A stretch of DNA of 64,000 nt from Curvularia clavata. Its lineage: Eukaryota. Both the position numbers and the translations under genes were made by a program. The DNA lies in NCBI GenBank assembly GCA_023920165.1, contig CP089274.1, positions 5,766,001 through 5,830,000 on the forward strand, in the 5' to 3' direction. Below are positions 56,516-62,325 of this stretch, in pieces. The notes under the pieces are model-generated. The model did no database searches. It was given only the letters and a program-made list of their open reading frames with translations, and was not told where the DNA came from. The first letter of the stretch is position 1, and every line of letters starts with the position of its first letter.

Positions 56516-56781
56516 TCTTATGAAGGAAAAGGTTGCTTGGAATTCAGTAGAAGAACAGGCGGAGACTTAAGTGCCCCAGCCCTACCTCTGACCTAAGGTA
56601 GATATCTCTGGTCCATGTACTACTATACAGTCTAGCAAGGCTGTAGAAGTATTAATTTCATCTGAGCGAAAAGCAATAAGCTAATGTAACGGCGACAAGG
56701 ATGCACCATCTCAACAAGAAAAAGCAATAGCTATAGTTATAGTACAGAAAAATGAAGATAGCAGATAGCAGAAATAATATA

Positions 56782-58636
56782 ACGTAGTTTATAAGCGAGT
56801 CGGTCATACAAGCGAGTCGGTCACCCTACTAACTTTGCGCACCTTTACAAGCGTGTAGCTCCACCATATATAGATAGTTTTGACAGATATTAAGATAGTA
56901 GATTAATTGCTATCTAGAGTATCTTTCTTACATGTACGCGAGTTATGGCCAGTCTCTTTGCATCTACTACAGCGCGCAAGAGCCCGGCCGCTGACACCTA
57001 ATCGCTCTCCTCCCTGACGCTCTTCATAAGCAATCTGCTCATCAGCATCGCGTTGAGCGATAATATCCTCGCCAGCTCCCTTTGTGAGTACTCCTTGCTT
57101 CTGTATTCGCTTTCTTTTACGCTGTCTACGCTTTGATGCTAGCTTATTAGCCTTCTGAAGACTAGTGATCTGATCGCGCATTAGCTTAGCCGATAGCATT
57201 ATTACTTGCGCGCCTTTCTTAAGCTGATCAATTGCTGCGATAATTGAAGCTGGCGAAGAGCTCTTATGCTGTCGAACGCGATTACTTATTAGCGTTGATT
57301 GAGCTTCAAGCTCGCGTACGTTGCTCGGCGTACAGGGCTGCCAGAGAGCTTCCGCGAGAGCAGCTGGAGGAGTAGGCGTACGTAGCTGTACGTCAAGCTT
57401 TGATAGAACAGTATCTGGCTGGAGAGGAACAAGGCCTGCGCCTCGGAAAGCTGAGCAGATATTGGCTGGCGTGAAGGATCGGTCGAACGCTGCCTTAAAC
57501 GCTGGTAGAAACTCGAGCTTGGTGATGTGGTTGATATGGTTGCGTATCAGACTCTCTACCTCACGGCTATACGCGCGCTTTAATGGGGAGAAGCAGCCAA
57601 CGTCAAGAGGCTGAAGTAGGTGAGACGAGTGAGGCGGCATACAGAGCGTGTAGATATTGTTCTCCTTGCAGAGCTCTTGGAACTCAAGTGACTGGTGGCT
57701 CTCATGGCCATCAAGGATAAGTAGCCGGCGTGCTCCAACAACCTTGCCATCTGTATGCTTAATAAAGTGCTTTAGCCACTCAACTCCAAGCTCATTAGTC
57801 GTCCAGCCGTTTTTGCTCACTGCGATCGCCCAGTCGCGTGGGATTTCTGCCTCCTCGTACCAGGCAGACAGGTGATACTTGCCAGTAAAGATCAGAAATG
57901 GTGGGATAGACCAGCCAGCTGCGTTAATCGTAGCGATAAACGTCACCCACTCGCGACCACCTGGCTGGATAGCCTTTGGATGGCCTCTTCTCTCTGACGC
58001 TGTAACGACAAGCTGAGTAGTAATCTTGCCCATTAAAAAGCCAGCTTCGTCAAAGTTGTAGACGTCCTCGTCGCAGATGCCGTACTTGGCCTTCGTCTGC
58101 TCTACAAGCTCAAACCAGCTCTTGATTAAGACCGGATCTTCACATAGGGCTCTCTGCCTATCATACGCTCGATTGAAACGCGTCGTAAGACTGTCTGTAC
58201 GCTTGACAAAGTTGCGCGGCCAGTGAACGCCAACCTGGCCAGCGTCGCGCGCAGCCAGCAGCTTATCAGCCATATCTCGCACAGCAGCATAGGTAGGCGC
58301 AAATCCACGTAGATCGAGATCGATTATATGGCTAGCAATCACTTGCTCTTCTAGCTGCGATAGCTTCTTTGAATTAGGCTGGCAATCGCGCCGCGCGTGC
58401 CTCCCAGCGCGTCGGTCGATCAGTGTTGATTTCGGAACATTGAAGGCTATAGCAGCGCGTCGGGTACTCTGGATTTGATTACTATCTAGAGAAGAAAGGG
58501 CAAGCTGAATATCCCCTTCGTGAGAAGTTAATTTAGAAGCGTGGTGTGGAGACATTGCGCGTAAAGTTAAGGTGGGTGATCAAAGCTAGAGGGGTGACCG
58601 ACTCGCTTGTATGACCGACTCGCTTATAAACTACGT
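56782..58636 (-). mobile_element. Full-length Fot1/pogo-family (Tc1-mariner superfamily) DNA transposon, 1855 bp
   Basis: Perfect 45-bp TIRs 56782-56826 and 58592-58636 (ACGTAGTTTATAAGCGAGTCGGTCATACAAGCGAGTCGGTCACCC); TA on both sides (56780-81, 58637-38); single transposase ORF. Confidence 0.96.
56903..58555 (-). CDS. Fot1-type DDD transposase (HTH-psq, CENP-B HTH, DDE_1, CCHC knuckle)
   Basis: [42 protein letters not shown] catalytic Asp motifs; C-terminal [14 protein letters not shown]; 550 aa uninterrupted. Confidence 0.95.
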
Positions 58637-59475
58637 TACATCAGATTTACAGCATCTCCCGGTGCAAGAAAAGTGGTTGTAAGCAAAGAAAATGATTCTC
58701 TCCTTGGAGCCAACCAAGCACCTATTAAAAGATAAAGATCAGCGCGGGGAGCGCTAGGTCACGGGATTGATATCTTGCTAAGAGGGTAGATGCTAGTGCA
58801 TCTAGAGATGTTATGATATTCAGGACATTTGTAGATTTTATTCGCTTGGCTAGAGGACAAAGATACCAGAGCCTACAGTGATGAGGATACAACGGTGGAT
58901 ACATTCTACTATTACTCTCACGGTCAACTCCGAATAGTCTCTCTTATAAAGATTGATACTAGTTATCCTATCGTATATAGAACTGATTGTTACTTTCAGT
59001 TAACTTCTACAAATCTTTTTAACTTGGATCTCCAATAATCGCAGGGCCTACCGCGTTCAACCATCTCGCCCTAACCTGGACCAAAATCGGGTAACTATAG
59101 CCTAACCGCTTATCATAAAATAAGCGAGCTGGATTCTGGTTTCTCTAATAGATGCTTGCGCATGTTATTGTTTGGATATCTGATATTGATAAGAGACTAT
59201 ACAGCCTTCGCAGAAACTAACCAATGCTATTGTAGAATATATCAATAGGTGTTTTTGCTTGTTGAGATGTAACACCTTTGCAACAGTTACAGTGGGATGT
59301 AGTATCTAGCTTACCGCCATCGCTTGGCTACAATTGACACTATCGTATCCCTGTAGTTCCACCAGGAACAGCACAGTTAATAGGAACTCTCACTCATGTA
59401 GAGATGAAGATAATTCTCCAACACACTCAGCATTTTTACCACTACAATCTTTTTTTTCCGTCTTTATACTCCAAT

Positions 59476-61602
59476 ATGAGGCTATTCATACTCTTGGGAA
59501 TATTTCTACCTTCTTTGTTATGTACGGCCGTAATTTTAGAAGGCGTTGGGGGTCTTCAGAAGAGAGACAGCACAGCAGAGAGGGTAAGCTCAGCTAGGAT
59601 TTAGCCTGCGATGGATCGCATGATTACTGATAGCTTACTATGGTGCAGACTGTAGGTTGGCCCAAGCGATGAAGATGATAGGTCGAAGAGAGACTTTATT
59701 AATAGCGGTTCGTGATATAGCAATTTGTAACACCTAACACCTCTGCACGCTATATGAACTAGAGAGGTTGCTAACAGCTATTGGCGGTATAGCTCGTAAG
59801 TAAATCTATGCCTATACGTGATAGAAGAGTAGGAGAATTTACTGAAGACTAATGATGGTGGTGTAGAAAGTAAGTAGACGCAGTGTTTTTATAAAATGGA
59901 CTGACTAGAGACTTTATTAACAGCTATTGGTGTAGGAAGTAAGTAGAATTAATCTCTCTACACAATAGATAAACTAGAGATAACTATTACTAATAGCTTC
60001 CATCACTGTAGTGCGTAAGTGAACTTGAATCTTCCAAACAGTAAGCCAACGAGAGACTCCGCTAATGGCTGGTGGTATAGCTAGTAAGTAGGCTTAATAT
60101 CTTTAAAAGATATATGAATTAGAGACTATGCTAATATCTGTTGGTGGTAAAGCGAGTAAGTCGACTTAATATCTCTGCGCAATAGATAAACTAGAGACTG
60201 TGCTAATAACCACTGGTGGATTAGAACGTAAGGTCAACACCTCTAAAAAATAAACTAACTAGAGATTGCTAACAGCTGGTGGTGGTATAGAAAGTAAGTG
60301 GACTTAATATCTCTCTGGAATGAACTAATTAGAGGCTTTACTAATGACTACTGACGATATAGCAAGTAGGTAAAATTGAAATCTCTAAATAATAGACTAA
60401 CTAGAAACTGTATTAACTTTTGCTCGCGTAGGAAGTAGGTTGACTTAACATTTTTACATAATAAACAAACTACATAGAAATATTACTAATAGCCGCTATC
60501 ACTTTAGTGCGTAAGTAAGCTTAGAGCTTCTAAAGAGCAGACTAACTTGAAACTATACTAATGGCTGGTGGTGGTGTAGAACGTAAGTAGAGTTAATGAC
60601 TCTAAAAGATCGACAAACTAGAGACTGAGCTAATATATATTGGTGGTATAGCGAGTAGGTAGACCTAATGTCCTTACGCAATAGACTAACTAGAGACTTT
60701 ACTAATTGCTTCTGGTGATATAGCGAGTAAGTAGACTTAAGATTTCTATGTAATAGATAAACTAGAGACATTACTAATATCTACTGGTGGTATAGGTTGT
60801 AAGTAGATTTAATAACTATACATAATACATAAATAAGGTAGAGAAGTTGCTAATAAATACCGGTGGAGTAGAATGTAAGTGGACTTTATATCTACACCAT
60901 AGACATTACTAACATCTACTGGTGGTATAGATTGTAAGTAGACTCAATAACTATACGCGATAGATAAGTTAGAGATTTACTAATAATTACTGGTGGTATA
61001 GAAAGTAAGTAGATCTACGCAATAGATAAGCTGGAGATTTGCTAATAATTCCTGGTGGTATAGGCTGTAAGTAGATCCAATATCTATACTCAATAGATAA
61101 GCTAGAGGTTTACTAACAATCTCTTGTAGTAAAGTGTGTAAGTATACCTAATATCTTTAAAGCATTGATAAATAGAGATATTACTAACAATGGCTGGTTA
61201 TATAGGAAGTAAGTAAGATTAATATCTCTAAGAGATAGAATAACTATAGATTACTAACAGCTGCTGGTGATATAGCGAGTAAGTAGACTTAGTATCTCTA
61301 TACAATAAACTAAATAGAGACTGTACTAATAGCTACTGGTGGTATAGTATGTAAGTAAACTTAATACCTCTATAGAATAGATGAAATTAGATATTGGTGA
61401 TAGCTAATGGTGATATAGAAAGTAAGTGGACTTGATATCTCCATAGTAGACTAATCAGACACCTTACTAATGGCTGCTGGCGATGTAGGAAGTAAGTAAA
61501 ATTGAACTCTCTAGACAATAGACTAACTAGAGCCTGTGCTAACTGCTGGTGGTGGTATAGTGCAGCAAGATTGTTGCTGGTACAGTGTGTATGTTACTCT
61601 AA
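59476..61602 (+). CDS. Micro-exon gene: predicted 77-aa secreted Cys-containing peptide encoded by 29 exons (26 of 3 nt)
   Basis: Exon1 59476-59583 MRLFILLGIFLPSLLCTAVILEGVGGLQKRDSTAER; micro-exons start at 59649 ACT, 59721 CAATTT, 59793 CTC, 59867 AAA, 59936 GAA, 60012 TGC, 60081 CTA, 60153 CGA, 60225 AAC, 60291 AAA, 60363 CAA, 60432 GAA, 60508 TGC, 60580 AAC, 60652 CGA, 60724 CGA, 60796 GTT, 60872 AAT, 60931 ATT, 61002 AAA, 61064 GCT, 61135 TGT, 61206 GAA, 61276 CGA, 61348 TAT, 61419 AAA, 61489 GAA; last exon 61561-61602 CSKIVAGTVCMLL* (3' end uncertain). Confidence 0.8.
59584..61560 (+). repeat. Degenerate tandem array of 28 intron-like units (56-73 nt, mode 69; unit period ~72)
   Basis: Consensus ~GTAAGTAGACTTAATATCTCTA..AATAGAYAAACTAGAGAC..TRCTAAY...GGTGGTATAG-NNN; 21/28 donors GTAAGT; 25 TAG, 2 AAG, 1 CAG acceptors. 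Confidence 0.92.
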
Positions 61603-62325
61603 TTCCACTTTCTAGAAGATTCATGCATAGAATCTCTATTAACCCCATATCTAGAGAAGTAGGCAGTGCAGGGGGGATTTTTTTTGGACAGCTTAGGAGT
61701 GTTTTGTCCGTTGTATGGAGTTCCCTTTATGGGTTTAAGCTCAGGCCGGAGAAAACGGGTTTCTGTCACTACCATTCCAGAATAGAAAGTTATACATACT
61801 ATAAACATAATTCTTTCTTTCCAAAAGCCCATTGATCCCCGCGCCTGTATATAATACTGTAATTGAATACAGTGCATTCAATGGCTAGCTAATCACAATT
61901 ATCCACCCATACTCTCTATCTTCAATCTCGAACAGGATCAAAGTCAAAGTTGATCTTAATGCTAGATTTCTTAGCGGGTCAGCAGACCTTAATCCATTCT
62001 GAGGATGAAAACCTTCGACCCTTCCTGCAACTTCTTCTATGCAGAGCTATAGGGCGTGATTAACCCGGGAGATATAGAATGCTATTATCGGAGATGTACA
62101 AAGGCTACTTGAGCCTAAAAGGCGGCACATTCTAGTAATCATGGGTAAACTGTACCATGGAAGAGACCGTATTATTGGTGGGCGCGTACGATACCAGAGT
62201 TCTTCATTTGATCAACTGGAAGAGTGAAAGATCGAAGTTTGAAAGTGCAGTACTACTTAGCAATTTAAATTAAGCTACATTCTTGATCGTTAAGATCAAC
62301 CTATAGCTCTCCAACCTTGATCAAC

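Follow-up and report, generated by a model that had tools for sequence, protein, structure and literature searches.

A predicted Curvularia clavata gene composed of tandem introns set one codon apart, and arrays of similar design in metagenome contigs

Can most of a gene consist of introns that stand a single codon apart? The question is raised by a locus at positions 59476 to 61602 (forward strand) of a 64-kb stretch of Curvularia clavata contig CP089274.1, referred to here as the window, in whose coordinates all positions are given. An earlier note, made from the letters of this DNA, had described the locus as a gene with a run of one-codon exons that encodes a small secreted peptide. From the sequence comparisons reported below, we consider it probable, with appreciable room for doubt, that the locus is a real gene in which an intron-plus-codon unit has been amplified in tandem and from which the introns are removed one after another by ordinary splicing.

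Rebuilding the gene model exactly reproduced the 28 introns, 26 three-nucleotide (3-nt) exons, and one 6-nt exon that had been claimed. The model has 29 exons totaling 234 nt and 28 introns of 56 to 73 nt (mode, 69 nt), all in phase 0; no internal exon has a length other than 3 or 6 nt. Its predicted spliced translation is a 77-residue peptide identical to the one proposed, and the 27 micro-exons contain no stop codon, again as described. The junction pattern AG-NNN-GT[AG][AG]G, said to recur every ~72 nt, is present at 29 places between 59401 and 61700, comprising the first donor, the 26 3-nt exons, and two overlaps within donors (at 60083 and 61208), and Tandem Repeats Finder independently reports a 70- to 72-nt period in the array. 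A pattern of three junctions matched 11 times in the window, compared with 0.00 times in 100 shuffles. The acceptor TAG stands in frame ahead of each codon, so only the spliced form is readable. The DNA had also been called very TA-rich, which is true of the array alone (35% G+C) and not of its surroundings (50.5% G+C for the window). The components of the predicted gene are as follows.

59404 to 59406 (+), alternative in-frame ATG, 24 codons upstream of 59476; the preceding in-frame stop ends at 59337
59476 to 59583 (+), exon 1: 108 nt, 36 codons, ending in phase 0 at a GTAAGC donor
59584 to 61560 (+), intron array: 28 homologous spliceosomal-type introns of 56 to 73 nt, mode 69, 35% G+C
59649 to 59651 (+), micro-exon ACT
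59721 to 59726 (+), the sole 6-nt exon, two codons; the weakest donor, GTAACA, comes next
59793 to 59795 (+), micro-exon CTC
59867 to 59869 (+), micro-exon AAA
59936 to 59938 (+), micro-exon GAA
60012 to 60014 (+), micro-exon TGC (Cys), with a 73-nt intron before it
60081 to 60083 (+), micro-exon CTA
60153 to 60155 (+), micro-exon CGA
60225 to 60227 (+), micro-exon AAC
60291 to 60293 (+), micro-exon AAA
60363 to 60365 (+), micro-exon CAA
60432 to 60434 (+), micro-exon GAA
60508 to 60510 (+), micro-exon TGC (Cys), with a 73-nt intron before it
60580 to 60582 (+), micro-exon AAC
60652 to 60654 (+), micro-exon CGA
60724 to 60726 (+), micro-exon CGA
60796 to 60798 (+), micro-exon GTT
60872 to 60874 (+), micro-exon AAT
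60931 to 60933 (+), micro-exon ATT
61002 to 61004 (+), micro-exon AAA
61064 to 61066 (+), micro-exon GCT
61135 to 61137 (+), micro-exon TGT (Cys)
61206 to 61208 (+), micro-exon GAA
61276 to 61278 (+), micro-exon CGA
61348 to 61350 (+), micro-exon TAT
61419 to 61421 (+), micro-exon AAA
61489 to 61491 (+), micro-exon GAA
61561 to 61602 (+), last exon: 42 nt, 13 codons, the first for Cys, then TAA

The U2-type introns of filamentous fungi have a GTRNGT-like donor, a CTRAY-like branch motif near the 3′ end, a YAG acceptor, and a length of ~45 to 100 nt. All 28 units of the array match this description. The donors are GTAAGT in 21 introns, GTAGGT in 4, and GTAAGG, GTAAGC, and GTAACA in one each, and the acceptors are TAG (25 introns), AAG (2 introns), and CAG (1 intron). 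A YTRAY branch motif is found 9 to 40 nt ahead of the acceptor in 28/28 units. The CTAAY form, which the earlier note had seen in most segments, is present in 25 of the 28 and lies exactly 18 nt from the acceptor in 21. Similar signals are used by two native introns of a neighboring gene in the window, which are ~50 nt long with GCTAAC or TACTAAT branch motifs. All 28 intron segments can be aligned with one another, and a profile built from them matches 28/28 times in the array and nowhere else in the 64 kb. Introns 6 and 13, both 73 nt long and each preceding a TGC codon, are mutual nearest relatives. Run X1, the only one of four runs to cover any of the stretch, yielded two contigs of low depth, of which one is 238 nt of the array in unspliced form; the run is uninformative on expression. 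The sole difference between the window and the independent X1 contig is a G-to-A change at 60369, donor position 4 of intron 12 (GTAGGT to GTAAGT), and both forms are usable donors.

The units diverge from one another in a position-specific manner. Pairwise identity is 0.72 to 1.0 in the splice-signal columns and averages 0.59 in the other 56 intron columns, while the triplet columns, at 0.24, 0.33, and 0.37, form the most variable of 70 three-column windows. Exon columns are thus the most variable and signal columns near-invariant, in keeping with the earlier description of triplets that vary while their length and flanking splice signals stay fixed. Among nearest-neighbor units, triplet identity is 0.417, whereas the 48 intron windows do not fall below 0.564 and have a median of 0.745. 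Departures from the consensus comprise 259 transitions and 170 transversions in the introns, against 14 and 32, respectively, in the triplets (Fisher p = 1.3e-4). Intron length is nonmodal in 17 of the 27 units detected by the profile, yet the exons are always 3 or 6 nt. Judged from the alignment, such a column-specific pattern is beyond the reach of recent amplification or gene conversion, and selection for splicing can yield it.

Exon 1 would encode Met-Arg, a 19-residue uncharged hydrophobic stretch, small residues, and Lys-Arg at codons 29 and 30. The N terminus is signal peptide-like in that it has a typical hydropathy profile, and its hydropathy is reached by only 2 of the 350 ATG-started open reading frames (ORFs) of at least 36 codons in the window, exon 1 included. 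As modeled, the product would be a precursor of 77 residues, and the peptide following the Lys-Arg site would be basic, be ~47 residues long, and have five cysteines. We infer that this peptide may be secreted, may be cleaved by Kex2, and may act as an effector or antimicrobial. Exon 1 had no match in Pfam. A Kex2-processed repeat protein or a fungal precursor of a ribosomally synthesized and posttranslationally modified peptide was considered and rejected, given that the predicted sequence has one Lys-Arg and one Arg-Arg and no repeated core peptide; the neighbors, a transposase and a P450-reductase-like gene, include no UstYa-type or tyrosinase gene.

Arrays of the same design were sought in metagenome contigs with a pattern that required three GTAAGT donors, two TAG acceptors, and any 3 bases at each junction. 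It matched at least 121 stretches, and 120 loci were analyzed. Many matches proved to be (TAAG)n-like low-complexity DNA without discrete units and were excluded. One locus (L006) has 45 units in which the "exon" is always GGA; Cas1 and Cas4 genes adjoin it, so it is a clustered regularly interspaced short palindromic repeat (CRISPR) array. Another (L034) sits on a 211-kb bacterial contig among bacterial transporter genes; both were set aside. The window array was itself considered as a CRISPR array or plain satellite, an idea rejected for its eukaryotic context. The final set comprises 27 arrays and 637 units; it leaves out 8 contig-repeating loci, the two bacterial ones, and 5 arrays that had under 8 triplets or under 4 different triplets. 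The junction pattern noticed in the window thus extends to at least 27 independent arrays in metagenome contigs, each made of mutually homologous 60- to 80-nt units set 3 nt apart. In these, 554 of 600 adjacent unit pairs are exactly 3 nt apart and one further pair is separated by 6 nt; parsing artifacts and broken donors are among the remaining 45. Intron length is nonmodal in 268 of the 637 units, and the unit length is divisible by 3 in only 5 of the 27 arrays. The proposal of a spliced micro-exon architecture is upheld in part, by indirect but independent evidence: column-specific conservation, intact signals, a homologous locus (L066, below), and a stop-depleted class. The locus is no one-off, the array being of a recurrent kind.

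Stop codons are strongly depleted from the triplets of this class. Only 5 of the 554 are stops, compared with 34.4 ± 4.1 expected from per-array column shuffles, and none of 2,000 shuffles had 5 or fewer. TAA is absent, compared with 24 AAA, 27 CAA, and 39 GAA triplets, and TGA is absent, compared with 22 AGA, 9 CGA, and 5 GGA, with T as the first base in 21% of triplets. All five stops are TAG and occur in three arrays (L056, L085, and L107). In these same arrays, the donor following a T-ending triplet is broken (to ATRAG) in 5/5, 5/8, and 6/9 cases, respectively, against 0/6 in the window and 0/91 in six other arrays. Their units differ by many G/A and C/T substitutions, and the donor change is TpG to TpA, the type produced by repeat-induced point mutation (RIP); from these features, all three look like decaying arrays. 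Arrays with intact splice sites avoid stops and decaying ones do not, which is the signature of spliced, translated sequence.

The context of the class is fungal. The arrays of L028 and L061 each have an upstream ORF of the NACHT/NPHP3_N type, and that of L016 has an upstream ORF with a winged helix and ankyrin repeats. In L062 (2778 to 4165), a 205-codon ORF with a HET domain at residues 90 to 196 begins directly after the last array acceptor. The first Met of this ORF lies only past the start of the domain, so the start codon must be upstream and reached through the array; a permissive search confirmed that an in-frame path links the HET exon to an ATG at L062:2778. In L009, an ATG and one codon precede the array, which is followed in phase 0 after the last acceptor by a 125-codon ORF. 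The exon downstream of the L105 array is HET-like by eye, and the 82 residues examined had no match in Pfam. Many class arrays encode low-complexity runs of D, E, Q, K, L, or F, and the occurrence of one residue several times in succession is consistent with arrays that grew as single units were duplicated. The longest arrays in the metagenome contigs have up to 63 or more one-codon exons; L078 and L079, on one 20-kb contig, have at least 66 units, and L068 and L069, on one 17-kb contig, at least 59. The L078 array continues past the end of the sequence analyzed. In both contigs the introns are richer in G+C and carry a polypyrimidine tract. Several array contigs have similar sample prefixes, and some fungi may thus hold many arrays. 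The junction-proximal ends of the window unit are common to L085, L107, L103, and L105, and the window unit profile as a whole had no match in the 120 loci.

Two loci have further features in common with the window gene. One (L066) is an 1,818-nt contig cut inside its array, with six regular 69-nt introns (55 to 61% G+C), a diverged last one, 3-nt exons of which 3/7 are Cys codons, and a stop codon directly after the last intron. It shares with the window one further element.

61709 to 61771 (+), 63-nt downstream element, 149 nt past the last array intron; single copy in the window

This element is 86% identical to L066:619-678 (E = 2e-14), which lies ~141 nt past the last regular intron of L066, and it is absent from the other 119 of the 120 loci among the matches listed. 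It has no notable fold and no Rfam match, and it may be a 3′ untranslated region or termination signal that serves as a marker of homology. By these shared features, L066 is a homologous, partial locus of the window gene; it shows no synteny with the window's P450-reductase neighbor. The second locus (L083) has introns 77% like those of L066 (53/69 consensus positions), Cys- and Gly-rich codons, and one 6-nt exon. Cys codons make up 3/25 triplets in the window array and 2/554 in the metagenome class (p = 7e-4), and both of the latter belong to L083. Homology of the window introns themselves to those of L066 (37/67 consensus positions identical) and L083 (36/68) was not retained as a result, since the alignments are no better than gapped alignments to unrelated families, and is "possible" at most. 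Judged from these loci, the window gene has relatives in which the design is kept although intron sequence and codons have changed.

The proposed history of the window gene is as follows. A 72-nt unit, consisting of a complete spliceosomal intron and one codon, would have been amplified in tandem to give the middle part of the gene. Each ~69-nt intron would be removed as an ordinary, intron-defined intron, and because donor and acceptor stand only 3 nt apart, neighboring introns would have to be removed successively rather than simultaneously. The 26 one-codon exons and the two-codon exon would thereby be joined in phase 0 between a 36-codon first and a 13-codon last exon. Unequal exchange or slippage would lengthen the array by one residue or block of residues at a time, after which point mutation under selection would drive the codons apart, with the splice signals kept constant. 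Every junction being in phase 0, a single array could also yield many in-frame isoforms through different pairings of donors and acceptors. Transcription and stepwise splicing of the locus are themselves inferred from its sequence. Beyond the window, it is quite conceivable, if somewhat short of probable, that fungi harbor an undescribed class of intron-plus-codon coding minisatellites, comprising stand-alone genes for Cys-rich secreted peptides (the window, L066, and L083) and N- or C-terminal extensions of HET and NACHT proteins, through which proteins are remodeled one residue at a time.

Several observations weigh against reading the locus as a functional, stepwise-spliced gene. The absence of stops is only weakly significant in this array by itself: column frequencies predict 2.1 stops (P = 0.11), and 5% of shuffles are stop-free. 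Variability as high as that of the triplet columns is also reached by single intron columns, the top three of which stand at 0.25 to 0.30, and the triplet spectrum is that of saturated sequence, so unconstrained triplets between constrained or homogenized introns would also fit the data from the window. The array has a RIP-like composition (TpA/ApT, 1.61; G+C, 0.35) that is confined to it, and the gene lies 835 nt from an apparently intact transposon. The ATG at 59404, if used as the start, would bury the hydrophobic stretch of exon 1, and the predicted mature peptide has an odd number of cysteines (five). Under lenient donor rules, other in-frame exon sets, some with longer exons, are allowed by a dynamic-programming search for exon chains, a search so lenient that it demonstrates only the existence of a path. 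Exon 1, a short query of low power, had no relatives in a word-indexed protein search (proteins of 23 to 74 and 75 to 2,000 residues) or among 1.84 billion representatives. On the comparative side, L066 lacks its 5′ end, and its introns match those of the window at only 37/67 positions of a consensus alignment and are missed by the window profile. Finally, we know of no demonstration, in any fungus, of splicing across runs of 3-nt exons.

Of the other explanations, the strongest contender, which we nonetheless regard as unlikely, is that the array is a minisatellite of introns, spliced but essentially neutral, whose units are correctly removed since unspliced RNA would be degraded or harmful, and that the short ORF is young or accidental and its peptide without selected function. 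The weak stop test on the window array alone, the saturated triplet spectrum, the AT-rich codons, the mere 13 codons past the array, and the lack of relatives of exon 1 would all be expected, and the D/E/Q/K/L/F runs of the class resemble tolerated filler at protein termini. A neutral minisatellite should, however, homogenize its triplets along with its introns, yet among nearest-neighbor units the triplets exceed the divergence of every intron window; nor would neutrality predict a Cys enrichment common to the window, L066, and L083 and missing from the other 26 arrays, or a signal peptide-like N terminus in exon 1. It is improbable that the locus is instead an untranscribed relic, a satellite of intron origin that RIP has mutated and that is decaying next to a transposon, with splice motifs left over from recent amplification. 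RIP-like indices and low G+C confined to the array, the adjoining transposon, and the existence of decaying arrays (L056, L085, and L107) are what such a relic would show, but ordinary positions in the window array have fallen to ~59% identity, yet 28/28 donors, branch motifs, and acceptors are intact and no stop has appeared, whereas the truly decaying arrays have stops and broken T-ending junctions (5/5, 5/8, and 6/9, compared with 0/6 in the window).

Two further alternatives accept transcription and assign the exons a lesser part. The micro-exons might be mostly skipped, in which case exon 1 would be joined to the last exon either directly or by way of a varying selection of codons, and a set of shorter, in-frame peptides would result. 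With all introns in phase 0 and all internal exons a multiple of 3 nt, any donor joined to any later acceptor would preserve the frame, alternative in-frame paths do exist, and splice sites 3 nt apart should clash sterically, given the known footprints of U1 and U2AF. Rarely included codons would nonetheless need no stop avoidance, yet the class shows it strongly; Cys codons would be irrelevant; and the arrays of L062 and L009 must at least be crossed in frame. We therefore hold predominant skipping to be about as improbable as a relic. Least credible of all, and very improbable, is that the locus hosts intron-encoded small RNAs in the manner of SNORD115/116, the exons being irrelevant spacers. 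Mammals do have introns in tandem that each contain a small RNA (PMC11608373, PMC3413130), and the intron interiors of the array are fairly alike between units. Against this, Rfam gave no match in 59000 to 62200 at E values up to 1 and none at the gathering score in 20 class loci, RNAalifold found no consensus structure among the array introns, and a hairpin proposed for the introns was dropped when its helix showed no covariation above controls. An intron of 69 nt, less its splice signals, also leaves little room for a small RNA, and neither the stop avoidance nor the exact 3-nt spacing would be explained. Tandem amplification of an intron-plus-codon unit, read by stepwise splicing, is the reading that we prefer.

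A literature search, to which most subscription journals were out of reach, returned no account of runs of 3-nt exons or of intron-plus-codon tandem arrays; several known systems share parts of the design. Schistosome micro-exon genes (MEGs) encode secreted proteins and have most of their coding sequence in short, symmetric internal exons between ordinary terminal ones; these exons, of ~6 to 36 nt, are not known to be separated by copies of one intron. The window gene is like MEGs in its signal peptide-like first exon, its short, symmetric internal exons of 3n nt, and the possibility of in-frame skipping; it differs in that its exons are single codons, the middle of the gene is an intron-plus-codon tandem repeat, and it belongs to a fungus. 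Its 27 internal exons are without exception symmetric and make up 84 of 231 sense nt, which is not the majority. No sequence or lineage relation to the platyhelminth genes is apparent from the protein searches with exon 1 or from the fungal context. At the ratchet points of Drosophila, recursive splicing proceeds through zero-length exons in long introns and leaves nothing in the mRNA. An acceptor followed almost at once by a donor, with stepwise removal as the outcome, is common to both cases, but each step in the window gene would leave one codon and span ~70 nt rather than tens of kilobases. Intragenic coding minisatellites, such as those of repeat-rich fungal surface proteins, are translated over the whole unit and change in length by unequal exchange. 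The window array is likewise an intragenic tandem repeat that would change the length of a protein, but 96% of its unit is spliced out and 3 nt are coding.

Isolated 3-nt exons are recorded in animals, in Drosophila homothorax (PMC7392893) and human MAP4K5 (PMC8632122), and the fungus Coprinopsis cinerea is credited with 27 of them in 26 genes (bioRxiv 10.1101/2024.05.10.593147). They indicate that a spliceosome, including that of a fungus, can include a 3-nt exon such as those of the window gene; in the C. cinerea count there are at most two per gene, compared with 25 in a row here. Tandem genomic duplication is an accepted, if rare, source of single introns (PMC4974935; PMC4457414, PMC8469720); in one fungus, <1% of the gains of single introns are put down to such duplication inside a gene (PMC4457414). 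The window array similarly implies local duplication within a gene and copies that are still recognizably homologous, but in the classic model an exonic AGGT segment is duplicated to give one intron, whereas here a whole intron plus one codon would have been duplicated to tens of copies. Fungal introner-like elements (PMC4457414; stwintron relatives, PMC8469720), which are families of near-identical short introns that multiply, resemble the array in this respect and differ in being dispersed over unrelated genes, whereas the copies in the window lie head to tail. No dispersed copies were detected: the profile had 0 matches outside the array in the 64 kb and 0 in the 120 metagenome loci.

If the preferred reading is correct, the locus would exemplify a new route by which peptides are made or lengthened, one residue per step, with the frame never broken, the codon free to vary, and the intron kept. 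It would be an extreme and countable case of intron gain by tandem duplication and, with dozens of acceptor-donor pairs 3 nt apart, a natural substrate for the study of how small an exon can be, in what order introns are removed, and how adjacent splice sites interfere with each other. Exons of 3 nt are beyond what gene finders and short-read aligners can place, and such genes and HET/NACHT ends would be missing from annotations or wrong in them. Should the products be secreted Cys-rich peptides or variable ends of allorecognition proteins, the arrays would bear on fungal interactions.

Upstream of the predicted gene lies an apparently intact pogo/Tc5-type DNA transposon (56777 to 58641), which ends 835 nt before the ATG at 59476. 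It carries a 550-codon ORF for a DDE_1 transposase on the minus strand (56903 to 58555) and terminates in 67-nt inverted repeats with 91% complementarity. Its composition is ordinary, and it bears no RIP signature. A weaker pair of inverted repeats (56685 to 56726 and 59250 to 59291; 42 nt, 74% complementarity) encloses the transposon, its end lying 185 nt upstream of the ATG; this pair may be due to chance or may be the remains of an older element.

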